Part shown: positions 15,632 through 32,594 of the stretch, piece after piece
How positions within the stretch are numbered: position 1 is the stretch's first letter
Layout of the letters: each line of letters begins with the position of its first letter
From: a bacterium
GTDB taxonomy: Bacteria; UBA8248
Assembly: GCA_965221165.1 (NCBI GenBank)
Contig: CBDCRP010000003.1
Location: forward strand, 352,001 to 416,000
DNA: 64,000 nt
Direction of reading: 5' to 3'
Notes under the pieces: model-generated
Seen by the model: the letters and a program-made list of their open reading frames with translations, nothing else
Told to the model about the DNA's origin: nothing
Databases searched by the model: none
Position numbers and translations under genes: made by a program

Positions 15632-16054
15632 TCACGCGCCCGTCCACGGGTCGATTACCTCAACCCCCATTTCTGCGAAGTCCCGGACGTTGCGCGTCGC
15701 CACCGCCATGCCTCGCGAGCGCGCGATAGCCGCAATCTGAGAATCGGCCATGGGGGCAGGACGCCCGGCGGCGCGGCGCGCCGAAGCGACTTCCGCATAG
15801 GCGAGCGCCGCGGCGCTGTCGAACGGCAACACGCGGCCTTCGAAATCCTCGCGAAGCATGGCTTCGATCTCCGAAGCCAACCTGTCCCGTCGCCGGCCCA
15901 TAGGCATAACGGCAACGCCGTAGCGCAGTTCCACTTCGCCGACTGCCGAGAAGAACAGGTCCTCCGCAGGATGTCCCGCAATCCACGCCTCGACGGACGA
16001 ATCGGTCGACAGGCGCATCAGTTCGGAAACGACGTTGGTGTCGAGCAGGATCAT
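15632..16054 (-). CDS. vapC: PIN-domain toxin (VapC/FitB type)
   Basis: Motifs MILLDTNVVSELMR, ELRYG, ADSQIAAIA, ATRNVRDF. Confidence 0.95.
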   Translation of the reverse strand: MILLDTNVVSELMRLSTDSSVEAWIAGHPAEDLFFSAVGEVELRYGVAVMPMGRRRDRLASEIEAMLREDFEGRVLPFDSAAALAYAEVASARRAAGRPAPMADSQIAAIARSRGMAVATRNVRDFAEMGVEVIDPWTGA

Positions 16055-16065
16055 GCCTAGCCGCC

Positions 16066-16308
16066 TTAATCGAACCGAGGCGGCTCGCGCGCCGGTTCAC
16101 GCGGCGGCAACTCCAGTTCCACGCCGCCCAAGGGCGCGAAGCGGGCGCGGATGAGGCTTGCGAGGTTTCCTGAACCCGGCTTGCGCCCGACAGCCTCGCG
16201 CAGGATCAGCCGCGCTTCCTCCTCCATCGAACGCCCGTTCTCCGCCGCCCGGATACGAAGGCGGGTTTTCACGTCGTCATCGAGATTGCGGATCGTGATG
16301 CTCGCCAT
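16066..16308 (-). CDS. FitA/StbC-like ribbon-helix-helix antitoxin
   Basis: MASITIRNLDDDVKTRLRIRAAENGRSMEEEAR, directly upstream of vapC. Confidence 0.92.
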   Translation of the reverse strand: MASITIRNLDDDVKTRLRIRAAENGRSMEEEARLILREAVGRKPGSGNLASLIRARFAPLGGVELELPPREPAREPPRFD

Positions 16309-17087: not shown

Positions 17088-17867
17088 CTAAATGTTGAAC
17101 CACGGGGTCACGAGAACGTATTTGACGTTGAACCCGATGCGCATGACCATTTTCGCCACCAATCCCATCATCGTCATGTTCAGGGACGCCTTGATGAGAT
17201 AGCGCACCAGTCCTACGTTCTTCATGCGCTCACGCCGCCAGATGTAATACGCCGGTATGGTGGCGTACCAGAGCACAATCATCACGGTGCCCGCCGCCGC
17301 CTGGCCCCAATAGCTCCTGAAGCCCAGCATGTAGGGGAGGTCCACGTTCGTCAGGGCCACGACCTTGTGCGGGTCCCAGTATTCCCAGGGCATGAAGAAG
17401 TTCCATCCCGGCCCGCGCAGGAAAGTCCCCTGCACCACCATCCACACCCACAAGACCAGAAATCCGAACAAGAAGATGAGGATGGCGAACCTGCGCTCGT
17501 GGAAGGTGTAGTAGCCGTTCCCCTTGGGGTTCACGTCGATGAAGGGGATGGCCATGAGACCCACGATGATGAGGGTGGGCAGCACGACGCCCGCCATCCA
17601 CGGGTCGAAATACACGAGCATCTCCTGAAGGCCCAGGAAATACCACGGCGCTTTCGAGGGGTTCGGCGTAACGGAGGGATTCGCCGGCTCCTCGAGCGGC
17701 GCGTCGATCACGATGGACCACACCACCAGCAGCACGGTGATGATGATCGCGCACATGAACTCCAGGCGCGTGAGGTAGGGCCACACGTGAACCTTGTCGT
17801 TCACCCGCTCCCAACTCGTCTTGGCCATGTCATCGGCAGAGCCGACTACCTTGTCTTCCTTCGCCAA
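17088..17867 (-). CDS. Cytochrome b C-terminal subunit (subunit IV-like) of a split cytochrome b
   Basis: VHVWP, APLEEPANP..TPNPSKAPWYFLGLQE (Qo motif is APWY instead of PEWY), several TM helices. Confidence 0.9.
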   Translation of the reverse strand: MAKEDKVVGSADDMAKTSWERVNDKVHVWPYLTRLEFMCAIIITVLLVVWSIVIDAPLEEPANPSVTPNPSKAPWYFLGLQEMLVYFDPWMAGVVLPTLIIVGLMAIPFIDVNPKGNGYYTFHERRFAILIFLFGFLVLWVWMVVQGTFLRGPGWNFFMPWEYWDPHKVVALTNVDLPYMLGFRSYWGQAAAGTVMIVLWYATIPAYYIWRRERMKNVGLVRYLIKASLNMTMMGLVAKMVMRIGFNVKYVLVTPWFNI

Positions 17868-17901
17868 TGTTCTCGCCCTTCCCTTTTATGCCCCGAAAAA
17901 C

Positions 17902-18690
17902 CTAGAGAGGCCCGGAGATGCCCCCGTCTTTTCGGATTCTCCAGAAATGCACCATCATCAGAATCGCCGCTATCAGGGGCACGACGATGCAATGCAGCAC
18001 GTAAAACCGCAGAAGCGTGGGCGGGCCGACGATGGTGCCGCCCAGCAGGGCCGAGCGCGCATCGAAACGCGGCGTAACGCCCACCATTTCGGCGAACGGA
18101 CCCTCGTGCCCCAGCAGGGGCGTGGCCCGCGCCATGTTGGTTCCCACCGTCACCGCCCAGATGGCCAGCTGATCCCAGGGCAGCAGATAGCCGGTGAAGC
18201 TGAGCAGGAGCGTGAGCGTGAGCAGCAACACCCCGATGACCCAGTTGAACTCGCGCGGCGGCTTGTAGGAGCCCGTCATGAAGACGCGCATCATGTGCAG
18301 CCACACGGAGATGACCATGGCGTGCGCCGCCCAGCGGTGCATGTTGCGCATGAACATGCCGAAGGGGGCGTCGAATTCGAGATACTTGATGTCGGCGTAG
18401 GCGTACTCGCCCACGGGCCGGTAGTAGAACATCAACACCACGCCGGTGACGACGAGGTAGAGGAACAGCAGGAACGTCACCCCGCCCATGCACCACGTGA
18501 AGCGGATGCGGATGGCGTGGCGCCTGATTTTCGTGGGGTGTAAGTGCAGCCACAGGTTATCCACGACCATGAGAACGCGGTTTCTCGGCGTATCCTCATA
18601 CCCGTGGCGGAACATCGACCTCCAGACCTGGGAATCAAGAACATTTTTTTTCACCTGATCCAGGTTCAAGCGTTCTTTCAAACTCGGCAT
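17902..18690 (-). CDS. Cytochrome b N-terminal subunit (cytochrome b6-like)
   Basis: [43 protein letters not shown]...HF. Cys in FTWCMGG lies at the heme c(i) attachment position. Confidence 0.95.
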
Positions 18691-18733
18691 CTATAAACCC
18701 CCACGCACTCGCTTCAAACGAATATGAAAACCT

Positions 18734-19288
18734 TTAGACAAAGAGAAAAGAACCCGGGGCGTCCCATTCCCCTTTTTCATGACGAAAAAGCTTGCCCTTG
18801 TCGATGAGCAACTGTCCATCCTCGGCCAGCCCTATTTTCAGCCTCTCGAGCGGCCTCGGAGCCGGACCCTCGAAATTCACGCCGCTTCTGCGGAATCCGC
18901 TTCCGTGGCACGGGCACTTGAACTTGTCCTCGGAGCCCAAGTACTTAGGCGTGCATCCCAAATGGGTGCATATCGCGCTCAGGGCGTAGAACCCGTTTTG
19001 TTCGCGAATTATCCAGACGCGCTCGCTGTTCACGTACCGCGTATCCACCACGCCCACGGCGTAATCCGCCGGCTTGCCCGCCTTGAACTCCGTGGGGGGT
19101 TCGAACAGAACGCGCGGGAACATGAAGCGCAAAAACCCGAGCAGCGAGATACCGATGCTGCCCAGGACGCCGAGCCACCCCGTGTAGTTCATGAACCGCC
19201 TGCGGTCGATGAACGGCTTTTTTTCTTTCGCCTCCTCCTCGTAATCGGCGGGCAGCTTCACCGGAGGGGCTTTCAAGCGAGTGTTCAT
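18734..19288 (-). CDS. Rieske [2Fe-2S] subunit
   Basis: Tat motif RRRFM plus TM helix, CTHLGC and CPCHGS boxes, GPAPRPL. ATG 19288 follows GGAG. Confidence 0.95.
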   Translation of the reverse strand: MNTRLKAPPVKLPADYEEEAKEKKPFIDRRRFMNYTGWLGVLGSIGISLLGFLRFMFPRVLFEPPTEFKAGKPADYAVGVVDTRYVNSERVWIIREQNGFYALSAICTHLGCTPKYLGSEDKFKCPCHGSGFRRSGVNFEGPAPRPLERLKIGLAEDGQLLIDKGKLFRHEKGEWDAPGSFLFV

Positions 19289-19689
19289 GCGGACTCCGCG
19301 CTCCTGTTCTGAGACTCGAACCACCTTTCAATTTCGCGCATCCCAAGGCCAATCCACTGCCAAGCGTCACGCGGATATATTATCCCCCATAACGACGGAT
19401 AATGAAACCGATTCGCTTGGTTTCGCCACGGGCGGCGCATGGCCTCGCCGGACGCCGAGACCACAGGGATGTAAGCAAACGCAAGATTCTTATTACGGAC
19501 GAAATCGTCTCGTGTCAAGGGGGAAGCGGTTCGGATGCCGAGAGCACACCGAGTTCTCGCTCGCCATTCCGGCGCATACCGCTCGAAGTCGTTCGCAGAG
19601 GCAGGGTTATAGTTATAATGTTTTCCTCGTCCGAAGCAATCTCTCCTTCATCAGTCGCGGCAAACACTCCTCCATCAGTCGCGTTTGAC

Positions 19690-20985: not shown

Positions 20986-21552
20986 ATGCCGGACATCGAT
21001 TCGTTTCGCCTCAACCCCCGGGACTGCCTCCTGCTCGTCGTCGACGCGCAGGAGAAGCTCATGTCCGCCATGAGCGAGAGCGTGCGCTCCCAGGTCGTCG
21101 GGCAAATCCTGACGCTGGCAGAAACGGCGACGCGCCTCGATTTCCCCGTCCTCGTCACCGAGCAATACCCCAAAGGACTCGGACCCACCGTCGATGCGGT
21201 GGCGGCGAAAATACCGGATTTCTCCCCCATCGCGAAAATTTCGTTCAGCTGCTGCGGGGAGGAGGCCTTTTTGCCGCGCCTGCACGAAACCGGCAGAACG
21301 AAAATACTGCTCACGGGTGCGGAGACGCACGTGTGCTGCTACCAGACGGCGCTCGATCTGCTGGACAACGGCTTTATCGTTCACGTAGTGGCCGACGCGC
21401 TTTGCTCACGCTCCAAACTCAACTGGCGGACGGGGCTTTCCGCCTTGGAGCGCGCAGGCGCCATTCCCTCCACCACCGAGCAGGTGCTCTTCGATTTGCT
21501 CCGCGTGGCAGGCACCGAGGATTTCAAATTCCTCTCGAAACTGATACGTTAA
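20986..21552 (+). CDS. Isochorismatase-family hydrolase (YcaC/ISOC-like)
   Basis: LLVVDAQEKL, TEQYPKGLGPTV, K.SFSC, G.ETHVCCYQT. AGGAG RBS. Confidence 0.9.
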   Translation: MPDIDSFRLNPRDCLLLVVDAQEKLMSAMSESVRSQVVGQILTLAETATRLDFPVLVTEQYPKGLGPTVDAVAAKIPDFSPIAKISFSCCGEEAFLPRLHETGRTKILLTGAETHVCCYQTALDLLDNGFIVHVVADALCSRSKLNWRTGLSALERAGAIPSTTEQVLFDLLRVAGTEDFKFLSKLIR

Positions 21553-21609
21553 GCCCCACGCCCACCTGAAAGGTTTTACCCGCATCCCGCGAGGAAGGAT
21601 TCGCCCAAG

Positions 21610-22704
21610 ATGGCGTCTGCACCCCAAAAAACAAGCGTCGGCGTGGTATTCGGCGGCAGATCGACGGAGCACGAAGTAAGCCGCAATTCGGGCAAGGCCA
21701 TCATGGCGGAACTGGACCCCGGGAAATACGACGTCCACCCCCTGCTCATTACGAAATCGGGCGCATGGCTCGCCCTCCCCGACCCGGATGCTTCGGAAGA
21801 CGAGGGCGAGGAGATACTTTTCTCGGGCACCCCGAACGGCAAACCGCTCCGGTACGCCGCAAGCGATGAAAATATCGATATCGACGTATTTTTCCCGATC
21901 ATTCACGGCACTTTCGGGGAAGACGGCACCCTCCAGGGACTCTTCGAGTTGGCGGAGGTTCCGTTCGTGGGTTCGGGATGCGCGTCGTCCGCGATAGCGA
22001 TGGACAAGACCGTGGCCAAGGCGGTGCTGCGCGCGGCGGGGCTGCCCGTTCTGCCGGCTCTTACGCTGTACCCCGATACTTGGCGTGCGGATCGCGACGC
22101 CATTTCGGAGGAGGCGGCTTCTAAAATCGAATATCCCCTGTTCGTCAAGCCCTCATCCTCGGGCAGCAGCGTCGGCGTCCACCTCGTGGAGAGCCCGGGA
22201 GAACTCGCCGACGCCGTAGAGGACGCCTTCCGGTTCGACCACAAGGTACTGCTCGAAGAACACGCCCGGGGTCGCGAAGTCGAGTGCTCCGTGCTCGAGG
22301 GACCCGCACCGGGCGACATCCTCGCCAGCCCGCTCATGGAGATCAGGACGCGCTCGGGCTGGTACGACTACGAGGCGAAATACGAAGAAGGGCGCGCCGA
22401 GCTCATCATCCTCGCACCCGTGGAGGAATCCCTCGCCGATCACGCCCGCTCCTACGCGCGGAGCGCATTCCGCGCCCTGGGCTGCTCGGGACTCGCCCGC
22501 GTGGATTTTTTCTACCGCGAGAAAACGGGCGAGACCTACATCAACGAGTTGAACACCCTGCCCGGCTTTACGCAGTTAAGCGGATATCCCCGGATGATCC
22601 GGGCGGCGGGCGTCCCCTACCCCGAAATGCTGGATCGCCTCATCGGCTGCGCGCTCGAGCGCAGCAAGAGGCTGGGCAGCAGGGAATACGACAGAAACAC
22701 TTAG
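21610..22704 (+). CDS. ddl: D-alanine--D-alanine ligase
   Basis: FGGRSTEHEVS, HGTFGEDGTLQG, VKP...GSSVG, YDYEAKY, RVDFF, NELNTLPGFT. Confidence 0.95.
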   Translation: MASAPQKTSVGVVFGGRSTEHEVSRNSGKAIMAELDPGKYDVHPLLITKSGAWLALPDPDASEDEGEEILFSGTPNGKPLRYAASDENIDIDVFFPIIHGTFGEDGTLQGLFELAEVPFVGSGCASSAIAMDKTVAKAVLRAAGLPVLPALTLYPDTWRADRDAISEEAASKIEYPLFVKPSSSGSSVGVHLVESPGELADAVEDAFRFDHKVLLEEHARGREVECSVLEGPAPGDILASPLMEIRTRSGWYDYEAKYEEGRAELIILAPVEESLADHARSYARSAFRALGCSGLARVDFFYREKTGETYINELNTLPGFTQLSGYPRMIRAAGVPYPEMLDRLIGCALERSKRLGSREYDRNT

Positions 22705-22717
22705 GCACGGCGTCTGT

Positions 22718-23710
22718 TTAGGCTCTTAAACAATTTTCCAAATATTCGAGGGCGCAATCTTCGGCCCAGTAGACCGGCGAGCGCGCGTTCGGACCCGACA
22801 CGAAACCCACGTGCCCCCCTTTTTTCGATAAAACCCCGCTCAACCACTCGGATTCCCCCACTTGCGCATGGGGAAAAACGCCGGGCGGCACGATGGGGTC
22901 GTCCTCTGCGGAGAGGATGAGCGTTTTCACCCGAATACGGGATAGATAAGGCGAAGCGTCGGCTTGTTCGTAATAATCCAGTTCGTCCCGAAAGCCATGC
23001 AGGGGCGCGATGACCAGGCGGTCGAAGTGGTGAAAGGTCCGCGCCCGCCTCACCGCCTCCATGTCGATGAGACCGGGGTGCAGTTCTGCGAAACGCTCGG
23101 CCTTTCTCTTCACGCTGCTCAGCAGATGCCATCTATAGAAATAGCCCCGCACGGAATCGAGAACCTTCGCGCACGCAGCGGGCCTTAAGCTCGCGGAAAT
23201 TCCGGCGGCCCCGCATATACGCGAGGAAACCCCCTCTCCGCATTCTCCCAGCCACTTGAGCAGGACGTTTCCCCCCAGGGAGAAGCCCGCCAGAACCAGC
23301 GGCGCATCGAATTTCTGGAGAATCCTCTCGACCACGAAGCCCAGATCTCCCGTTTCCCCGCAATGGTAGAATTTAGGCTCTAAGTTCGGCTCGCCGCCGC
23401 ATGAGCGGAAGTTCAGGGCCAGCGTCCGCCAGCCGAGCGCGCGCGCGCCGGCCGCCGCCCCGCGCACGTAATGGGACTCGGCGGAGCCTTCCAGCCCGTG
23501 CAGCACGAGCAGCGTGGGAGCTTCGCCTGCTTCCGCGTCGAGAAAGTCCACGTCCAGGAAATCGCCGTCGGGCGTATCCCAACGCTCGCGCCGCCAGGCG
23601 ATTCGCGGGCGTTTTCTTAAAAAATATCCCCATATGCTTTGGAGATGGCGGCCCGGGCAATACCAGGCCGGACGGAAAGGGGGGGTGAGCGAAGCGGCGC
23701 GCGCGTTCAT
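22718..23710 (-). CDS. YheT-family alpha/beta hydrolase
   Basis: HLQSIW, PDGDFLD, HGLEGS, GFSLGGN nucleophile elbow, DDP, GGHVGF. Confidence 0.9.
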   Translation of the reverse strand: MNARAASLTPPFRPAWYCPGRHLQSIWGYFLRKRPRIAWRRERWDTPDGDFLDVDFLDAEAGEAPTLLVLHGLEGSAESHYVRGAAAGARALGWRTLALNFRSCGGEPNLEPKFYHCGETGDLGFVVERILQKFDAPLVLAGFSLGGNVLLKWLGECGEGVSSRICGAAGISASLRPAACAKVLDSVRGYFYRWHLLSSVKRKAERFAELHPGLIDMEAVRRARTFHHFDRLVIAPLHGFRDELDYYEQADASPYLSRIRVKTLILSAEDDPIVPPGVFPHAQVGESEWLSGVLSKKGGHVGFVSGPNARSPVYWAEDCALEYLENCLRA

Positions 23711-23734
23711 TCCGGGCGTATGGGCAGGTGCTGA

Positions 23735-24652
23735 TCAGCCATCCAGGCCGAGAAGCGCTTTATAGATATCCTCGCGAGTCGTCGGCGCGTCACGGCCATA
23801 CTTCATTTTATATTTTTGAGCCAGAACCTGGTAAAGGCCCAGCGAATTGCAGAAAAACGCGTTCGATGAGCAAACCAGCCAGATTCGATACACCCGGTAG
23901 GTGCGCTCACCGACCAGTTCCTTTATTTTTTCGGCGTTCTTCTCGAATCTCTCATACCATTGCTTACACGTGCGCGCATAGTGGAGCCTCAGATTCTCCA
24001 CGTCCAGAATCTCCCAGCGCGCAAGCTCCATCACGTCCTGAATATGAGAAATGTTGTCCATCTCGGCGTTGGGAAACACGTTGCGAAGCAGAAAATCGAA
24101 CTGGCTCGTGTGTTTCCAGAATTTGTTCGTCGTAATCCCGTGGTTCAGGAACAAGCCCCCGTCGCGCAGACGATTTCGCACCGAAGCGAAATAGCTCGGA
24201 TAATTCGCAATGCCCACGTGCTCAATGATTCCGATGGCGGAAATTTTCGCAAAAGTCCTCTCTTCGGGAAAATCCCGATAATCCATGTGATGGATTTCGC
24301 ATCTGCCTTCGAGTCCCTCGCGGCGAACCTGGTCCTGGCCCCATTTCGCCTGCTCGCGCGAGAGCGTCACGCCGGTTGCGTTCACGCCGTAGTGCTTCGC
24401 CGCCCATATCGCCAACGAACCCCATCCGCAGCCGATGTCGAGGTAATCCTCTCCGGGGGAGAGCCTGAGCTTCCTGCAAACGAGGTCCATCTTGTCACGC
24501 TGCGCCTGATCGAGATCGCCGTCGGGCTCCCGGTAGTAGGCGCACGTATACAGCATGTTTTCGCACAGGAATTGCTCGTAAAACTCGTTGGAAATATCGT
24601 AGTGGTGTGAGATCGCCTCGGCATCGAATTCTTTTGTTCTCTCTTTTACCAT
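23735..24652 (-). CDS. Cfa-family SAM-dependent lipid methyltransferase, catalytic domain only
   Basis: ISHHYDISNEFY...MLYTCAYY, LDIGCGWG, GVTLSREQ, IIEHVG, LHYART. ATG 24652 follows GAGG. Lacks the roughly 110-aa N-terminal Cfa domain. Confidence 0.9.
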   Translation of the reverse strand: MVKERTKEFDAEAISHHYDISNEFYEQFLCENMLYTCAYYREPDGDLDQAQRDKMDLVCRKLRLSPGEDYLDIGCGWGSLAIWAAKHYGVNATGVTLSREQAKWGQDQVRREGLEGRCEIHHMDYRDFPEERTFAKISAIGIIEHVGIANYPSYFASVRNRLRDGGLFLNHGITTNKFWKHTSQFDFLLRNVFPNAEMDNISHIQDVMELARWEILDVENLRLHYARTCKQWYERFEKNAEKIKELVGERTYRVYRIWLVCSSNAFFCNSLGLYQVLAQKYKMKYGRDAPTTREDIYKALLGLDG

Positions 24653-24678
24653 AGCCGCCTCAATGTTGTTGTTGTTTT

Positions 24679-25791
24679 TCAGCCTATTCCGAATGCGCCT
24701 TCCAGAACCAACCGGCGTCTGAGCCAGGCGTTGCCGCAAATAAACCTGGCCACACCGAAAAGAACGTTGTCGGGAACGCGGTCGACCAATTTGTCGAGCA
24801 TCCCTTCCCCGCCGCTTCCGTATTTCGCGGAAAGCGCCTCACCGTATTCGACGAGACCCTCCCCCGTCTCCAGATACGCATGCGCGGCCCTCGCCGCCAT
24901 TTTAGCACTATGGACGGCAGGGCCGATGCCCTCTCCGCTGAAATCCTTGGCGAGACCGGCGGCGTCGCCGATAAGGGCGAACCCATCGCCCACCGGCCTT
25001 CGGACGTGCCTGCGATAGACCGAATAGGCGTGGCCGCGGAATTTCGTGAGTTCGAGCTTGGCGGACAGCCTTCCCGTTCGGCGGAATCTGTCGAGCAGAA
25101 TCTCGAGGCGCTCATGAACGCTCGGGCGCTTGCCGATGCAGCCCACGCCGATGTTCAAAAAATCCCCTTTTGTGAAATACCACGCATAACCCTTGAAGTC
25201 GGGTTCCGCGAACAGTTCGGGCAAACCGTAGTTGGGCGCCAGGGCGCGGAGCTTCTCCGCCCCCACGTTTGTTTCACTCTCCTGCGTCAAGACGACGGAT
25301 TCTTTCGAGGAAACGTCGCCGAAAGTCCTGGCGACGGGGCAGGTATGCCCCCCTGCGCCGATAACGACGGGCACTTCTAACTGCTCGCTTCCCAAATCCA
25401 CGCGCATTCCCCCGGCCGTCTTCTCGATACCCCGGACGCGGGCGCCCTCGCGCACCTCGGCGCCCTCTTCCTGCGCGCGCCTCAAGAGATAGGTGTCGAA
25501 CTGGCTCCTGATGATCCCGTAACTCGCAGGCTCGCTCCATTTCGTCTCGAGGAGCTTGTCGTCATAGCCCACGAACACGCTTTGAAACGGCTGTATCGTG
25601 TGGGGGTATTCATCAGGCCTGAGTTCCAGATCGGCCATCACCTGCTTCGTCACCCAGCCAGCGCAAAGTTTTACGCGCGGAAACGTGGCCGCATCGAGGA
25701 GCAGCACGCGGCGGCCCCTCTTCGCCAACTCCCAGGCGGCCGTGCTGCCCCCCGGGCCGCCTCCGACGATAAGAACATCCCAGGCGCTCAT
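24679..25791 (-). CDS. Geranylgeranyl-reductase-family FAD-dependent oxidoreductase
   Basis: DVLIVGGGPGGS, FPRVKLCAG, IIRSQFD, GYAWYF.K, IGDAAG...FSGEGI. ATGA overlap with the upstream ORF at 25788-25791. Confidence 0.88.
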   Translation of the reverse strand: MSAWDVLIVGGGPGGSTAAWELAKRGRRVLLLDAATFPRVKLCAGWVTKQVMADLELRPDEYPHTIQPFQSVFVGYDDKLLETKWSEPASYGIIRSQFDTYLLRRAQEEGAEVREGARVRGIEKTAGGMRVDLGSEQLEVPVVIGAGGHTCPVARTFGDVSSKESVVLTQESETNVGAEKLRALAPNYGLPELFAEPDFKGYAWYFTKGDFLNIGVGCIGKRPSVHERLEILLDRFRRTGRLSAKLELTKFRGHAYSVYRRHVRRPVGDGFALIGDAAGLAKDFSGEGIGPAVHSAKMAARAAHAYLETGEGLVEYGEALSAKYGSGGEGMLDKLVDRVPDNVLFGVARFICGNAWLRRRLVLEGAFGIG

Positions 25792-26144
25792 TCGGACAGT
25801 TTCCATATGCGCAGAGCGAACATGAATTTCTGCATCATGGTCATCTCCACCTTGTCGAAACTATCGGCCACCTTCATGGCCTCGAACAAATCGCCGTCGA
25901 AGTCGATGCCTCCGTCGCAATACGCTTCGGCAAACCCATCCGCCTGGGGATTCAGCAAAACGCGCTTGAAGGCATCCAGCGACGTGAACGTCACGGTAAC
26001 GGGGAGCACCTCGCGGCCCACCGCCAAAGCCGACCCGTCCCACATCCGAAAGTGGAGTCCGTGTTCGAGATCCCCGAAAATATGCCGCAGAATCTCGGCG
26101 GCGCCGGACGCGGCGGAACGGCTCTTTACAGGAGATGTCTTCAT
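25788..26144 (-). CDS. Stand-alone Cfa N-terminal (lipid-binding) domain protein
   Basis: FRMWDGS...FKRVLLNP..DGFAEAYCDGGIDFDGDLFEAM matches the N-terminal signature of long Cfa proteins (LGEAYxxGxxDxxGDL). GGGAGG RBS. Confidence 0.75.
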   Translation of the reverse strand: MKTSPVKSRSAASGAAEILRHIFGDLEHGLHFRMWDGSALAVGREVLPVTVTFTSLDAFKRVLLNPQADGFAEAYCDGGIDFDGDLFEAMKVADSFDKVEMTMMQKFMFALRIWKLSE

Positions 26145-26411
26145 GATGTCATCCTCCCGTAGGGCGATAGGGGATGATGTGTTCGACGTACTCTCTACAC
26201 TCTAACTCGTCCATGCCTCGTGAAGCGCGAAAAAGAAAACCCGGTCATGCTGAAACATTCATCTATTCTGAATTAACGCTCCTCGCGCATTCTGTCAACC
26301 CTTTTTTTTGGATGGGGGAGGCATCAGGGTGAGGACGGGGGCGTCAGCAGATGAGCGGGAACGGGAAGAAAGGGCGAAGCATCCCTCACCTCCTTGCGTA
26401 AGGAGCGCAAT

Positions 26412-26575
26412 TCCCCGCATTTGCGCGCCGGGGCTACCGGGTGCGCGCGCGTATGATGACGAAGCGGGTCGGCGCGTTCAGCGGCGGGTGCGTTTGTGAA
26501 AATAAGTGAAAAAAAGGTGAAAAATAGCGAAAAATAGTGAAAATATCTGAAAATTTAAATAATTGAATAATTAGG
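26412..26575. other. Non-coding element: TCCCCGCATTTGCG box plus six phased GAAAA tracts
   Basis: GAAAA starts at 26498, 26508, 26519, 26529, 26539 and 26549. A related element lies at 58681-58830. Confidence 0.7.
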
Positions 26576-26626
26576 GATTATATCGAAAAAAGCCCTTGGC
26601 GGGTGATGGGGCCCCACCCCCCTCGC

Positions 26627-27484
26627 CTAGCGGAGCGAGGTCACCAGAATCACGCCCGCCACGGTGAAGAGCGCGCCCCAAGCGATGCGCCGCGTGATTC
26701 TCTCCCTGCTCCCCAGAATCAGGGGCGCCAGCGCGAGCGTAAAGAGCGGCACCGTCGCCACCATGGGCGAGACGCGGGACACCTCTCCCATGCTCAGGGC
26801 GGCCATCAGGCACAACTGGGCGGCCCCCATCGCAAGCCCCGCCCAGAAGAAATTCATCAGCGAGGGCCTGTTGAACACGAACGGGCGCCACCCGGTGCTC
26901 GCCTTCAGGAAAAACGGCCCCACGGCGCACGCCGAAAGCGATTGCAGGAATCCCCCGAGAACGAGCGAGTCCATGCCCCCCAGCCCCATTTTCCTGAGCA
27001 TGTGGGCGAGTCCGAAAAAAGCGGCCGAAGTGAACGGCAGAAGCAGAGCGCGCCCCCTTGTGAGCGGACCTCCTCCGCTCGACATCCAGAAAACACCGGC
27101 CACGACGAAGAGAATCCCCAGCCACACCACGGCGGGCGGGCGTTCCCCCAGAAATATGAAAGCCCAAAGCGCCCCGAAAATGGCGTGGGTATTGGAGATG
27201 GCGCTCGTGGGAGCCACGCCGATTCTCTGGATCGAGCGATACAGGAACAACAAGGAGAGCGCGGGCGAGGAGAGCCCCGCCGCCAGAAAGGCGAGCCAGT
27301 AGACCGAGAACGATATTTGGGAGAAATCCACCGCCGCCAGGCAAAAAGAGAAGAACAACAATTGCATGAAGAGGACGACCAGACTCCCCGTGTGCGGCGT
27401 ACTGCCGTCCAGCCCTCTCCTGGTCATGATGCTCGAGAGGGAGAAGAAAAGAGCCGGGCTCAGGGCAACCAGTTCGAACGGCAT
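26627..27484 (-). CDS. EamA/DMT-family transporter
   Basis: About 10 TM helices in two repeats, FLGER, VSRVSP. Confidence 0.88.
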   Translation of the reverse strand: MPFELVALSPALFFSLSSIMTRRGLDGSTPHTGSLVVLFMQLLFFSFCLAAVDFSQISFSVYWLAFLAAGLSSPALSLLFLYRSIQRIGVAPTSAISNTHAIFGALWAFIFLGERPPAVVWLGILFVVAGVFWMSSGGGPLTRGRALLLPFTSAAFFGLAHMLRKMGLGGMDSLVLGGFLQSLSACAVGPFFLKASTGWRPFVFNRPSLMNFFWAGLAMGAAQLCLMAALSMGEVSRVSPMVATVPLFTLALAPLILGSRERITRRIAWGALFTVAGVILVTSLR

Positions 27485-27539
27485 TCAAACTCCGACCCGG
27501 CCGATGGCATCGACCTGTCCGGCATAGGGAGAAAGTCGA

Positions 27540-28487
27540 TTAAACGACCTCTGGATTCACGATATTCACGGGTTTTTCGCCGGCCAGGGCCAGACGCATG
27601 TTCTCCGCAGTGCGATCCATGGCGGCGACCTGCGTCTCCGGCGTCCGGGAAGCATGGTGCGGGCTGATGATGACGTTCTCCAAACCCCACAAGCCATGGT
27701 CCTTCGGTAAAGGCTCAGGGTCCGTGACGTCAAGCCCCGCGCCGCCCAGGTGGCCGGCGCGCATCACCTCCAGAAGATCACCGCTCACCACGGCGGGGCC
27801 TCTGGAAACGTTGATGAGCATGGCTTCCGGCTTCATTTTCAAGAGATTTTCCTTGTTCATGATGCCCCGCATCTCCGGCGCCAGGGGCATGCACAGAATC
27901 AGGAAATCGGCGCGCGGCAAAAGCGCATCGAAAGAGGAGAACTCGAACTTCGCCTCGGGCACATAGGAGGGGTCCTCCGTTCGCGTATTGATGAGCAGTT
28001 CCATACCGAAACCACTGCCGATGCGCGCCGCCCTGCGGCCGATATCTCCAAGACCCACGATGCCGAGCGATTTTCCGCCCAATTGCACCGCCGGCACGTG
28101 CTCCCAAGTTTCCTGCTCATCGCGCATCCAGGCGTGGCGCGCCAGATACAGCGCCATGAAAAAAGCGTGCTCCGCCACGGAGCGGCCCCGGACGCCCTCT
28201 ACGTTGCAGACCATGACGCCACGCTCATTGGCCGCATCGACATTGATGTTGTCCACGCCTGCACCCGGCTTGGCCACTACCTTGAGATTCGGCGCCATGG
28301 CCATCATCTCGGGCGAGACGGGCCGAAACACCGTGAGTATGCCCTCCGCATCCGGCAACAATGGTTCTATGGCCTCCGGGGTGTATTCGTCCGGCGCGAT
28401 GACCTCGTGCCCCGCGCCCAGCCAATCAGAAGACACGTTCCATGCAGGAGTCGAGTAAAGCGGATCGATCAACACTACTTTCGCCAT
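27540..28487 (-). CDS. D-isomer-specific 2-hydroxyacid dehydrogenase
   Basis: GAGVDNI, GIVGLGDIG, INVSRG, GLDVTDPEP, ISPH. ATG 28487 follows GAGG. Confidence 0.9.
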   Translation of the reverse strand: MAKVVLIDPLYSTPAWNVSSDWLGAGHEVIAPDEYTPEAIEPLLPDAEGILTVFRPVSPEMMAMAPNLKVVAKPGAGVDNINVDAANERGVMVCNVEGVRGRSVAEHAFFMALYLARHAWMRDEQETWEHVPAVQLGGKSLGIVGLGDIGRRAARIGSGFGMELLINTRTEDPSYVPEAKFEFSSFDALLPRADFLILCMPLAPEMRGIMNKENLLKMKPEAMLINVSRGPAVVSGDLLEVMRAGHLGGAGLDVTDPEPLPKDHGLWGLENVIISPHHASRTPETQVAAMDRTAENMRLALAGEKPVNIVNPEVV

Positions 28488-28655: not shown

Positions 28656-29747
28656 TTACCCGATGATCTTGAGCTCAGGCACCGATATGGGCCCTGATGC
28701 GTTGGCGATAGCCACCTGCTCGGCCACCTTTCTGGCGGCCTCGCGAAACGCCCTGGCCGTAGGATGATCGGGCTCTCCCGTTACGACGGGCATGCCGGAA
28801 TCTCCTCCCATCCTCACTTTGATATCGAGTGGAATGGCGCCCAGAAACGGGACTTCATAGCGCTGGGAGGCTTTCTCCCCGCCGCCGGTATCGAAAATGT
28901 TCTCGCGATGCCCACATTCGGGGCACAGGTAGTAGCTCATATTTTCGATGATCCCGAGGATGGGCACGTCGGTTTTCCTGAACATCTGAAGACCCTTGCG
29001 CGCATCGAGCAAAGCGATGTCCTGAGGCGTGCTGACGATAACGGCGCCCGCCAGAGACACCTGCTGCACGATGGTCAATTGCGCGTCGCCGGTGCCGGGA
29101 GGCAAGTCCAGAACCAGGTAGTCGAGTTCCCCCCAAATCGTCTCGCTCAAAAACTGCACCAGCGCCCGCATCACCATAGGGCCGCGCCAGATGACGGGGC
29201 TGTCCTCATCGACCAGAAAACCCATCGACATGACTTTCAGGCCGTGCGCCTCCAGCGGCCTTATCTTGTTCTCCGCTTCGGCGATGGGTTGCGCCTTGGG
29301 AATCCCCAGCATCAGGGGCTGGCTCGGCCCGTAAATATCGGCGTCCAATATCCCCACCTTCGCGCCTTCTCTGCTCAAGGAGAGCGCGATGTTCACCGCC
29401 ACGGTGGACTTGCCCACGCCGCCCTTCCCGCTTGCTATGGCGATGATGTTCTTCACGCCCGCAACGTCCATCTTGCCGGCCATCGAGGGTCGCGTGGTGA
29501 CGTGGCTCGTCACACGGACGTTTACCGTATTCACGTTCCCCAAAGAACCGACGGCCAGCTTGCATTCCTGCTCGAATTCCTCTTTGCGCGGATGCGCAGG
29601 CGTCGTCAACTGCAGCGTGAAGGCGACCGCATCTCCACAAATCTGCACATCCTTGATCATGTTGAGGCTCACGAGGTCTTTTCCGACCTCGGGGTCTCGC
29701 ACCTTCTTCAGAGCCTCTAGAATCTGGGCTTCCGTTGCTTCTGACAT
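28656..29747 (-). CDS. apbC: Mrp/ApbC Fe-S cluster carrier ATPase
   Basis: N-terminal DUF59-like domain, SGKGGVGKST, DADIYGPS, WRGPM, DLPPGTGD, ENMS...CPECG. Confidence 0.95.
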   Translation of the reverse strand: MSEATEAQILEALKKVRDPEVGKDLVSLNMIKDVQICGDAVAFTLQLTTPAHPRKEEFEQECKLAVGSLGNVNTVNVRVTSHVTTRPSMAGKMDVAGVKNIIAIASGKGGVGKSTVAVNIALSLSREGAKVGILDADIYGPSQPLMLGIPKAQPIAEAENKIRPLEAHGLKVMSMGFLVDEDSPVIWRGPMVMRALVQFLSETIWGELDYLVLDLPPGTGDAQLTIVQQVSLAGAVIVSTPQDIALLDARKGLQMFRKTDVPILGIIENMSYYLCPECGHRENIFDTGGGEKASQRYEVPFLGAIPLDIKVRMGGDSGMPVVTGEPDHPTARAFREAARKVAEQVAIANASGPISVPELKIIG

Positions 29748-30044
29748 AAGTGGGATCCTCTAATCGAAAACTGGAAACGCAATGAAAAACCGCTTATCGA
29801 AAAGTATTCTATTCAGACGAACTATTGTCATCTTATCCCCCGGATTTTTTGCACTGTCAAACGTGAAAGGCGCAACCCAATTTTACGAAGGCGCACAAAA
29901 TCGAGAAAAATCCCTTTATTGGTTGACGCATCGGCTCCATCTCATTATTTTTAGGCCGTCTCGTTTTGTTGATTCAGAACACATCCGTGCGCCTCAAGCG
30001 ACCATGACAGATTCAAGCTAGCAAAAACAAGGAGAATCAACCCT

Positions 30045-30845
30045 TTGGATATCATCGTCTGTATCAAGCAAGTACAAGACCCCGACATACCTCCCCGCGA
30101 TTTCAAGGTCGATGAGGAGAAGATGGATGTCATCCCGCCCGCGAACGTATCGCCCGTCATCAACGGCTTTTGCGAGAACGCCGTCGAGGCGGCCATCAAC
30201 CTCAAGGAAGAATACGGTGGAAAAATCACCGTCATGACGCTGGGCGATCAAAAGGCCAGGGATGGCCTAAAAAAATGTCTGGCCATGGGATGCGATGAAG
30301 CCGTATTGCTTCAAGACGATGCCTTTGAGGGTTCCGACGCTTTCGCTACGGCGCGAATTCTGGCGAGCGCCATCCAAAAGCTGGATGGTTTCGACGTCAT
30401 CCTCTGCGGCAGGCTGAGCAGCGACTGGAGCTATGGAACCACCGCCCTCGCCCTCGCCGAAGCGCTTGAGCTTCCCAGCGTAAGCCAGCTTCAGAAAGTG
30501 GAGAAAACCGATGCGAGTCTTCGGTGCGAACGCGCTTTGGAAGACGGAGTGGAGGTCGTGGAAGTTTCGACCCCGTGCCTGCTCACCGCCAGCAACGAGA
30601 TCAACACGCCTCGCCTGCCCTCGGTCAAAGGCATCTTGATGGCGTCGCGCAAGCAAATTCCCGTCTGGGGCGTGGCGGACATCGGCATAGACCCCGCTTC
30701 GGTCGGAAAAGAGGCGGCTACTTTTGAAATCACTAAATTCTACAAACCCGTGTTTGACGGAAATTGTGAATTCATCGAAGGCGAATCACTCGAAGAAGCA
30801 GCCGGCACCCTGGCGCTTCGTCTTCGTGAAGACAAAATTATTTAA
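30045..30845 (+). CDS. etfB: Electron transfer flavoprotein beta subunit
   Basis: IIVCIKQV.D, AVEAA..LKE, LAMG.D, NTPRLPS. TTG start after AAGGAG. Confidence 0.93.
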   Translation: MDIIVCIKQVQDPDIPPRDFKVDEEKMDVIPPANVSPVINGFCENAVEAAINLKEEYGGKITVMTLGDQKARDGLKKCLAMGCDEAVLLQDDAFEGSDAFATARILASAIQKLDGFDVILCGRLSSDWSYGTTALALAEALELPSVSQLQKVEKTDASLRCERALEDGVEVVEVSTPCLLTASNEINTPRLPSVKGILMASRKQIPVWGVADIGIDPASVGKEAATFEITKFYKPVFDGNCEFIEGESLEEAAGTLALRLREDKII

Positions 30846-30863
30846 GGGAGAAAGAACAACGCC

Positions 30864-31856
30864 ATGTCGAACAACGTCCTCATTTTAACCGAGCGCGCAG
30901 GGGACAAGCTGGCGCTCGTGAGCAGTGAGCTTTGTGGAATCGGCCGAAAACTCGCCGATGAAAAAGGGGGTTCTCTGGTGGCCCTTCTCCTCGGCGGCTC
31001 CGGCACCCAGGAGTTGGCAAAAGGCCTCATCGCTCTGGGGGCCGACAAGGTGCTGGCGGCCGAATCGGATATTCTGGAAGGCTATACCAATGCGGCGTAC
31101 TTGAAAGTAATCGATGCCGCTATAGCAGAAGAGAGCCCGATCATTTTTCTGGTCGCCAATACCTCTACGGGGCGGGATGTAGCCCCCAGGCTCGCTTTCA
31201 GACATGGCGCCAGCTACGCGCACGACTGCACGGACCTGATGATTGAGGATGGCGCACTCGCCGCCGTTCGCCCTGTGCACGGGGGCAGCGCCATCAGCCA
31301 CATCCGATCAAAAACGGATTCCCTCTCCATCGCATCCACACGCGCGAAAGCCCTTCCGCTGGCCGATATAGAAGAGGGCCGCGAGGGTGAGTTCATGGAA
31401 ATCAGCGTTTCGGTGGATGCCGACGAAATTCGAATGAATTTCGTAGAAGCGAAAAAAATAGAAGCCGAAGGCGTCCGCTTGGAAGATGCGGAAATCGTGG
31501 TGAGCGGTGGTCGCGGCCTGGGAGGTCCTGAGAATTTTGAATATCTCCAAGAACTCGCCAAGGTTCTCAAAGCAGCCGTGGGTGCGAGCCGCGCCGCCGT
31601 CGACGCCGGCTGGGTGCCGACGCCCATGCAAGTGGGCCAAACGGGCAAGATTGTGAGCCCCAATCTCTACATCGCCGTCGGCATCTCCGGCGCCATGCAG
31701 CACATGGTCGGCGCCGGGCCGAGCAAAAACATCGTGGCCATCAACACGGACGCCGAAGCGCCCATCTTCCAGCGCGCGCGCTACGGCATCGTGGGAGACT
31801 ACAAAAAAGTCATCCCCGCCCTGACGGAGAAATGCAAGGAATTGATGGATTCCTGA
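30864..31856 (+). CDS. etfA: Electron transfer flavoprotein alpha subunit
   Basis: [51 protein letters not shown]. Confidence 0.95.
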
Positions 31857-31859
31857 CTT

Positions 31860-32594
31860 TCAGGCGAGCGGCTGATAGGCCCAGACGACACGGCCCACGA
31901 TTCGATCGGCAGGCTCTTCTCCACCCAAATCGATATGAGTGACCATCTCTTCGCGATTCTCCGGCACCAGCCATAGACGAGGCGGGGTCCACTGCAACCG
32001 CTTGAGCGTACACCCGCCGGATTCATCCCGAACGGCGTAAATGCCATCCGAAACGATCGCCTTGTCACGACGATCGATGACGACCACGGCGCCCGGCTGT
32101 ATCAGGGGAACCATGCTCCGCCCCATTTCCCTGTCCACCCGAACCGAGACCAAGTCTCCTCGCCCGGCGATCTGGGAGACGTGGATGAGTGCATACTCCT
32201 CGACTTCTTCATCCACGATTCTGGCGCTGCCCGCCGCAATGGAACCCGACACCAAAGGCACGGCGCGAAATTCCGTATCACTCACCTTGCCCGGCGTCTG
32301 CACATTATCGCTCACGCTCAAAGCGACATCCAAAGGCCCGACGCCAGGCACTTCCTGCACGCCGGTTCGGCCCAACAACCAATCGCTGGACACATCGAGC
32401 ACCTTGGCGATTTCAAAAAGTTTACTCGCGCTAGGCTCGTTTTGGCCCTGCTCATACCGGGTGAGATTCGCCCAGGTGACCCCTGCGGTACGCGCCAATT
32501 GGTTGCGGTTCAATCCCTTGCGCTCACGCGCGCGCGCAATGCGGCGTCCTAGTTCGAGCGCATACTCCGATCGGGGTTTGGGGGGCTCGGGCAT
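31860..32594 (-). CDS. XRE/CI-like repressor with C-terminal S24 peptidase domain
   Basis: HTH (YEQGQNEPS...IAKVLDVSSDWLLG), IAAG cleavage-site region, Ser (GRSMVP) and Lys (TLKRL) dyad, IVGRVVW. Confidence 0.88.
   Translation of the reverse strand: MPEPPKPRSEYALELGRRIARARERKGLNRNQLARTAGVTWANLTRYEQGQNEPSASKLFEIAKVLDVSSDWLLGRTGVQEVPGVGPLDVALSVSDNVQTPGKVSDTEFRAVPLVSGSIAAGSARIVDEEVEEYALIHVSQIAGRGDLVSVRVDREMGRSMVPLIQPGAVVVIDRRDKAIVSDGIYAVRDESGGCTLKRLQWTPPRLWLVPENREEMVTHIDLGGEEPADRIVGRVVWAYQPLA

Follow-up and report, generated by a model that had tools for sequence, protein, structure and literature searches.

A naturally split Cfa-type methyltransferase encoded around a TmpA-like reductase: a candidate new layout of the tmpBA pathway for mid-chain methyl fatty acids

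Introduction

Described systems for making mid-chain methyl fatty acids pair a methyltransferase of the cyclopropane fatty acid synthase (Cfa) family with a reductase. They include bfaAB/tmsAB, the tuberculostearate genes of Actinomycetota, and tmpBA, known from Thiohalospira halophila, Marinobacter hydrocarbonoclasticus, Desulfobacter and Desulfobacula (PMC7791843). Four of the five tmpBA operons tried in E. coli yielded 10-methylene palmitate, and the two reductases, BfaA and TmpA, share no meaningful homology (PMC7791843). In this work, we analyse a locus on a 64,000-nucleotide (nt) stretch of bacterial DNA (the window; contig CBDCRP010000003.1, lineage UBA8248) in which a Cfa-type enzyme is encoded as two genes, one for its N-terminal domain and one for its catalytic domain, with the gene of a flavoprotein of the geranylgeranyl reductase (GGR) family between them.

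The split layout is real, conserved and widespread. From sequence comparisons, we consider it rather probable that the products form a heterodimeric methylene-forming methyltransferase which, together with the reductase, makes mid-chain methyl fatty acids, that is, a new layout of the tmpBA pathway. The original prediction for this DNA had held the three-gene layout to be undescribed. A literature search, which covered sources other than subscription journals, patents and preprint supplements, indeed had, among the papers listed, none on a naturally split Cfa or on this layout, and the locus apparently represents an undescribed form of a pathway type published in 2021.

A Cfa enzyme in two genes

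Four genes follow one another on the same strand (table 1). The original prediction had read them as a Cfa N-terminal domain, an ATGA-coupled reductase, a Cfa catalytic domain starting at the ISHHYD linker and a YheT hydrolase, and had seen an intact frame and a separate ribosome-binding site for each half. We recovered all of this at the same places, with single terminal stops and with GGAGG and GAGG sites before the two halves. Upstream of the reductase start there is just a GGA, a weak site; translation from another in-frame ATG, at 25806, would give a protein of 375 amino acids (aa). The catalytic gene starts 26 nt past the end of the reductase gene, and ISHHYD begins 13 residues after its start. 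Aligned with fused relatives, the small protein extends through the last N-domain helix and the large protein begins at the residues just before HYD; the sole segment absent is the variable inter-domain linker. Each half occurs just once in the host genome, with the catalytic gene as its sole Cfa homologue.

Table 1. Coordinates of the genes and signals of the locus within the window.
Feature	Position	Strand	Remarks
Stand-alone Cfa N-terminal domain gene (SCP2-like, lipid-binding)	26144-25788	minus	118 aa; single terminal stop
TmpA-like geranylgeranyl-reductase-family flavoprotein gene	25791-24679	minus	370 aa; single terminal stop
Stand-alone Cfa catalytic (SAM-binding) domain gene	24652-23735	minus	305 aa; single terminal stop
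YheT-type alpha/beta hydrolase gene	23710-22718	minus	330 aa; single terminal stop
Shine-Dalgarno GGAGG of N gene	26153..26157	minus	8 nt before ATG
Shine-Dalgarno GAGG of catalytic gene	24658..24661	minus	5 nt before ATG
ATGA stop/start overlap, N gene to reductase	25788..25791	minus	couples both genes

These signals recur in related genomes: GGAGG precedes the N gene in most same-genus loci inspected, and the -4 overlap between the N gene and the reductase is found in most host-family loci inspected. Two contigs from RNA libraries of related strains (X21 and X22) span the N/reductase and reductase/catalytic junctions; they are no proof of a single transcript and may derive from DNA. YheT has next to no coverage there, to which we attach no meaning. 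A scan for promoters and terminators did no better than chance (2 against an expected 1.5, and 4 against 5.1), and no Rfam match falls within 21000-28000.

Conservation of the split layout

Writing N, R and C for the N-domain, reductase and catalytic domain, 27 of the 30 related genome loci with the reductase (in records titled Nitrospinota, Nitrospinaceae or Tectomicrobia) read N-R-C. Two others read R-C on contigs that start inside R, and one reads N-C-R (L030, titled Thiohalorhabdus). A frameshift or assembly artefact is ruled out by the same order in these 27 loci. With four further N-R-C loci in soil-type metagenomes, the layout is not unique to this assembly; uniqueness is what the original prediction had named as fatal to it. 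Within the host family, the reductase is present in 41 of 42 genomes (host included), with at most 141 bits in other families of the phylum. All 25 family genomes that were scored have the catalytic domain, with identities of at least 74%; the other 16 genomes give weak partial methyltransferase matches at most.

Metagenomes place the split form within a broader pattern. Among 80 metagenome loci, four read N-R-C, one reads N-R and ends at a contig edge, and one (L031) holds a split-clade reductase alone. The remaining 74 carry a more distant TmpA-like reductase: in 38 R is preceded by a fused N-C gene and in 19 by a C domain, while 17 show R only (two of these with a Cfa gene on the opposite strand). 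A Cfa catalytic domain thus lies directly upstream on the same strand in 57 of the 74, which makes the pairing of Cfa with a TmpA-like reductase the rule.

The N-C-R order belongs to a halophilic, gammaproteobacterial genus, that of genome G041. In this genus, six of seven genomes have a split-type reductase; five read N-C-R (L030:3710-6131, L122, L123, L177 and L178, the N match of L178 being partial), and one locus ends at a contig edge. Among 400 genomes of the same class, 47 match; the 29 new loci listed comprise 2 N-C-R, 24 fused, 2 C-R and 1 R only, and six further, lower-scoring loci are all fused. Three genomes (G041, G235 and G394) have a separate, fused Cfa gene as well (L114, L171 and L173), around which no reductase lies within 1.5 kb. 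10-Methyl-16:0 is reported from the type species of the genus, but in view of these fused Cfa genes we did not count it as evidence on the split form.

The N-domain protein and its fit to the catalytic half

The original prediction had made itself depend on the homology of the 118-aa protein to Cfa N-termini, and this is borne out by two profile matches and a fold. The protein scores 25.1 bits against DUF7884, below the cut-off of 27, and matches positions 5-82 of the CfaB model (24 bits, E 1.9e-5). Its structural model (pLDDT 86.8) has the N-domain of Cfa 5z9o as best fold match (Z 6.5, root-mean-square deviation 3.7, 89 residues aligned); close behind are SCP2 proteins (Z 5.7 and 5.4, a distance of 1 to 1.1 at most). 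Foldseek with the same model returned nothing at E 0.001 or better, Cfa 7qos being matched at E 1.3e-3. For comparison with tmpBA we used a locus (L149) encoding proteins of 408 and 375 aa, which we equated by eye with the published TmpB and TmpA, respectively. When the N protein was compared directly with this TmpB-matching protein by BLASTP, no match was found, so the homology rests on profiles and folds.

The median ratio of nonsynonymous to synonymous substitution rates (dN/dS) over 15 relatives is 0.24 for the N gene, with values of 0.19-0.33 in all 15 comparisons, against 0.11 for the reductase and 0.085 for the catalytic gene; both halves are thus under purifying selection. N proteins are kept from soil lineages to the halophilic genus at 22-40% identity and constant length. 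A profile built from 17 of them listed 150 matches; of the top 50, 36 do not exceed 135 aa (some of these may be contig fragments), and a piece of the C domain, nearly whole in 10 cases, is attached to 44 of the 150. Taken together, we infer that the 118-aa protein would be the small subunit of a two-subunit methyltransferase.

Modelled as a complex, N and C are predicted to bind (score 0.71, best of three controls 0.01; partner pLDDT 86), and the runs share at least 95% of contacts. This contact prediction, a check suggested beforehand, came out positive, as expected from likeness to solved Cfa. Of 157 solved pairs, 116 attain the mark that this pair passes, as do 2 of 215 mismatched ones, counts that hold roughly since the alignments were our own. 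A pass here shows likeness, since the halves of a split gene pass by their resemblance to solved Cfa. The predicted interface joins A72-Y75 and L86 of N to E249 and R253 of C, all invariant in our alignments. In a 2018 structure study, a split form of E. coli Cfa was reportedly poorly active. The E. coli domains made as separate chains remain associated, and residues 100-120 form a disordered linker (PMC9851988).

The reductase

The reductase passes the TIGR02032 model (169.3 bits, cut-off 158.8). Its identity to the TmpA-matching protein of L149 is 39% (373 columns, E 1e-68), against E 7e-17 for the best solved GGR or halogenase by sequence. Weaker matches comprise MenJ, halogenases and monooxygenases. 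In a quick tree of 128 rows, it is nested among TmpA-like proteins, and the split-form reductases make up one clade (SH-like approximate likelihood ratio test, 98). Both this tree and that of the catalytic domain (74 rows) are without a root and were built under a simple model; we left out duplicate loci, partial domains and 21 of the 29 host-family loci, which are nearly identical.

Residues Y202, W204 and F206 align with the YxWxF motif of archaeal GGRs, which is conserved in 119 of 120 relatives, and Foldseek of the reductase model puts archaeal GGRs on top. The GGR-like nature of TmpA, which the original prediction had put forward as needing verification, is stated in PMC7791843, and the window's reductase is related to TmpA over its full length. 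In GGRs, residues Y215, W217 and F219 enclose an alkene that bears a methyl group, and unbranched acyl alkenes are thought to be poor substrates (PMC9385802). By analogy, a methylene-branched chain would suit this reductase.

The catalytic half and its phylogeny

The 305-aa protein scores 291 bits against CMAS and covers positions 97-393 of the CfaB model. That full-length model is thus shared out over two separate proteins, at 323 and 24 bits, with its cut-off of 650 not reached. The S-adenosylmethionine (SAM) motif and the bicarbonate-site residues, for which we assumed the E. coli numbering, are present in 112-120 of the 120 closest relatives. Although database entries of up to 534 aa were eligible, 118 of these 120 are 295-316 aa long, and 118 carry HYD in the first 25 residues; the named cluster members belong to Rokubacteria/Methylomirabilota and Binatia. 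Identity to the TmpB-matching protein of L149 is 37%.

The split catalytic domains, 27 of the 74 rows in the tree, form one clade (96/98); 12 of the 27 are known only as short proteins. The clade shares its branch with fused enzymes of the CfaB-like and bfaB-like kinds, a group that contains both ring-forming and methylene-forming members. In both the catalytic and the reductase trees, the N-C-R group diverges first. Most simply, the gene would have broken once, at the inter-domain linker, and the gene order would have changed afterwards, a direction suggested by trees that are unrooted. The N-C-R order was then likely retained in one gammaproteobacterial genus, the reductase having moved between the halves in other lineages.

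A candidate pathway

In the pathway that we propose, the 118-aa and 305-aa proteins would form a two-subunit Cfa-type methyltransferase, in which the small subunit would bind membrane phospholipid and the large subunit would move the SAM methyl onto the cis double bond of a mono-unsaturated acyl chain. Proton loss would leave an exocyclic methylene, as for TmpB and BfaB, a step suggested by the partner and not by the enzyme's own sequence. The TmpA-like flavoprotein would then reduce the branched alkene to a saturated mid-chain methyl (e.g. 10-methyl-16:0 or 10-methyl-18:0). A DesA-family desaturase may supply the substrate: one is encoded in the host genome, and another lies directly after the operon in two of the four soil-type N-R-C loci (L033:3245-3985 and L036:5011-5751). 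In these two loci, the desaturase is followed by an open reading frame of 352-353 aa with no Pfam or NCBIfam match. At G000:C3:320139-320774 (L179:883-2343), the DesA-family desaturase ends in a long C-terminal tail rich in Ala, Glu and Lys.

The original prediction held that the operon methylates and then reduces acyl chains instead of cyclopropanating them. This stands as the best reading because of the TmpA-relative partner; as to the product, it is inferred, since the relatives with which the methyltransferase groups are CfaB/BfaB-like and not TmpB. Several observations weigh against such a pathway. Among NCBIfam models, the catalytic protein fits CfaB, a cyclopropane synthase, best (323 bits), and ring-forming and methylene-forming enzymes have the bicarbonate-site residues in common, so the sequence does not reveal the product; this is why our confidence goes no higher. 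The phylogeny check proposed beforehand was answered in part: the split enzyme does group with CfaB/BfaB-like enzymes but not with the TmpB-type branch, which is separated at 100/99 in a tree with one published TmpB. An approximately unbiased (AU) test on 37 of the 74 rows gives p 0.063 for joining the split form with the TmpB type, so a joint clade is not rejected. On the reductase side, halogenase and monooxygenase folds lie near the GGR ones (FasV at E 3.2e-22 against 4.9e-25), and one split-clade reductase (L031:1490-2578) adjoins neither half. Finally, in its only published trials, made in E. coli and in yeast, TmpA itself showed no activity (PMC7791843).

In figure 2b of PMC7791843, the tmpB of 'T. 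denitrificans' (genus not spelled out) is among the genes tried in yeast and falls outside the two named active, as do three others. If it were a catalytic-only gene of the present type, the missing N subunit could explain why it is not named as active. A few kb upstream of our locus (28656-31856, minus strand), a Mrp/ApbC-like gene and an EtfB/EtfA-like pair were recognized by eye, a possible electron source.

Alternative readings

The two halves could also be an ordinary two-piece cyclopropane synthase, with the reductase acting on another lipid or opening the ring to a methyl branch. Such an enzyme would agree with CfaB as best model, with its being the only Cfa in the genome, and with the nearest fused relatives, which have no TmpA-like neighbour in the plasmid loci inspected. 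Yet the active published neighbours of TmpA gave methylene acids (PMC7791843). Moreover, the reductase accompanies the split enzyme in 40 of the 41 other family genomes and in two gene orders, and BfaB-like methylene-formers occupy the same tree region; we regard this alternative as unlikely, though worth taking seriously. A different chemistry is offered by UfaM, which methylates the near carbon and shifts the double bond; a subsequent reduction would give 9-methyl-16:0 or 11-methyl-18:0, not 10-methyl acids. Since the catalytic half is a lineage separate from TmpB, it may have another regiochemistry. DUF1365, which we take to be the furan-pathway partner of UfaM, was looked for in one genome, that of the host (96% complete), and was not found there. 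On the other hand, sponges hold 8-/9-Me-16:0 and 10-/11-Me-18:0 at 20% of fatty acids or more (PMC7840048), and a close relative occurs in a run labelled sponge metagenome. On balance, a UfaM-like route seems a shade less credible than a cyclopropane synthase.

Alternatively, the enzymes might work not on phospholipid acyl chains but on an isoprenoid, a quinone tail or a carrier-bound chain; the flavoprotein would then be a prenyl reductase, an oxygenase or a halogenase. Mycolic-acid methyltransferases (287-318 aa) do function without an N-domain. The weaker reductase matches point the same way, and GGR-family enzymes reduce prenyl chains (PMC9385802). However, TmpA is far closer than any solved GGR or halogenase, a lipid-binding N-domain of Cfa type is under selection and desaturases are neighbours, so that we find this improbable. 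It is harder still to credit that the N gene is a decaying remnant next to a catalytic domain that acts alone. It does evolve faster than the other two genes, but its narrow dN/dS range, constant length, strong ribosome-binding site, retention across lineages and invariant residues at the predicted interface all argue otherwise, and we give this very little credence.

The original prediction had also suggested that the free N-domain presents lipid to both enzymes. The pathway does not require such a shared subunit; the invariant residues of N lie where it is predicted to touch the catalytic half, and loci in the order N-C-R occur as well. The heterodimeric pathway itself can be taken further. 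The free SCP2-like subunit might shuttle lipid from methyltransferase to reductase, the enzyme might have a regiochemistry of its own (9-methyl-16:0, 11-methyl-18:0), and the family might be among the makers of the mid-chain branched acids of high-microbial-abundance sponges. A missing subunit or electron donor could then also account for TmpA never having proved active. This extended version is a long shot.

Neighbouring genes and other features

The YheT-type hydrolase gene had been counted in the operon. It does adjoin the catalytic gene here, but it is a neighbour in host-family loci only, is found beside the operon in none of the soil-type or N-C-R loci, and was rejected as a core part. 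The hydrolase (NF008218, 217.8 bits, below the cut-off of 267) is probably not part of the pathway. Some 200-600 extra bases lie between the catalytic gene and YheT in L004, L006, L008, L010, L014, L016, L017, L024 and L029.

Elsewhere in the window, three features were recognized by eye, all on the minus strand: a bc-type complex with genes for a Rieske protein, cytochrome b and a subunit-IV-like protein (17088-19324), a PIN-domain toxin with a small antitoxin, VapBC/FitAB-like (15632-16308), and a helix-turn-helix regulator with an S24-like C-terminal part (31860-32594). Outside the window, a Mesorhizobium plasmid cluster (L165:1-3373) combines a type III polyketide synthase, a methyltransferase, an FAD monooxygenase and a fused Cfa.

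Significance

If the proposed pathway is right, mid-chain methyl fatty acid synthesis would extend to a whole uncultured family, given the presence of the reductase in nearly all of its genomes, and would also reach Rokubacteria/Methylomirabilota, Binatia and a halophilic gammaproteobacterial genus. 10-Methyl acids are used as markers of actinobacteria and sulfate reducers, and would become weaker ones. A naturally two-subunit Cfa enzyme would also provide a test case for the roles of the linker and the N-domain, and a further TmpA where the published ones were inactive.

There is also a possible link to sponges, where mid-chain branched acids make up at least 20% and their maker is unsettled; they have so far been ascribed to Poribacteria and to Sup polyketide synthases (PMC7840048, PMC4245539). 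The run labelled sponge metagenome contains a 251-letter piece with 3 differences. The pathway, if real, would be a testable candidate source of these acids; the host family is at most a candidate maker.

Comparison with known systems

Each part of the locus has described counterparts. Known Cfa synthases (E. coli Cfa, CfaB, 5z9o, 7qos) have the same two domains and the same SAM and bicarbonate-site residues, but are single chains with a disordered linker and no reductase partner, whereas here there are two chains. Mycolic-acid methyltransferases (CmaA1, PcaA, MmaA) resemble the catalytic half in having no attached N-domain; the catalytic protein is unlike them in scoring 157.9 bits against NF040660, where the cut-off is 390, and we know of no separate N-domain gene that accompanies them. 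Archaeal GGRs (TaGGR 3oz2, SaGGR 3atq) share with the reductase the fold (TM 0.71 and 0.69), YxWxF and a Cys at the aligned position, but only 23% identity, and their substrates are isoprenoid.

Among complete pathways, bfaAB has the same order of reactions, methylene formation and then reduction, and bfaB-like domains fall in the same broad branch as the catalytic half. It differs in that BfaB is one chain, the gene order is another and the reductase here is of the GGR family, not of the BfaA type. The closest likeness is to tmpBA, where a Cfa-family methyltransferase likewise adjoins a GGR-like flavoprotein. The catalytic domain here falls in another tree branch, with a joint clade not rejected (AU p 0.063), and the five published TmpB proteins are single chains of ~375-437 aa encoded in the order tmpB-tmpA, whereas here two genes stand around the reductase. 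The locus would work like tmpBA and yet lie outside a group defined by single-chain methyltransferases.

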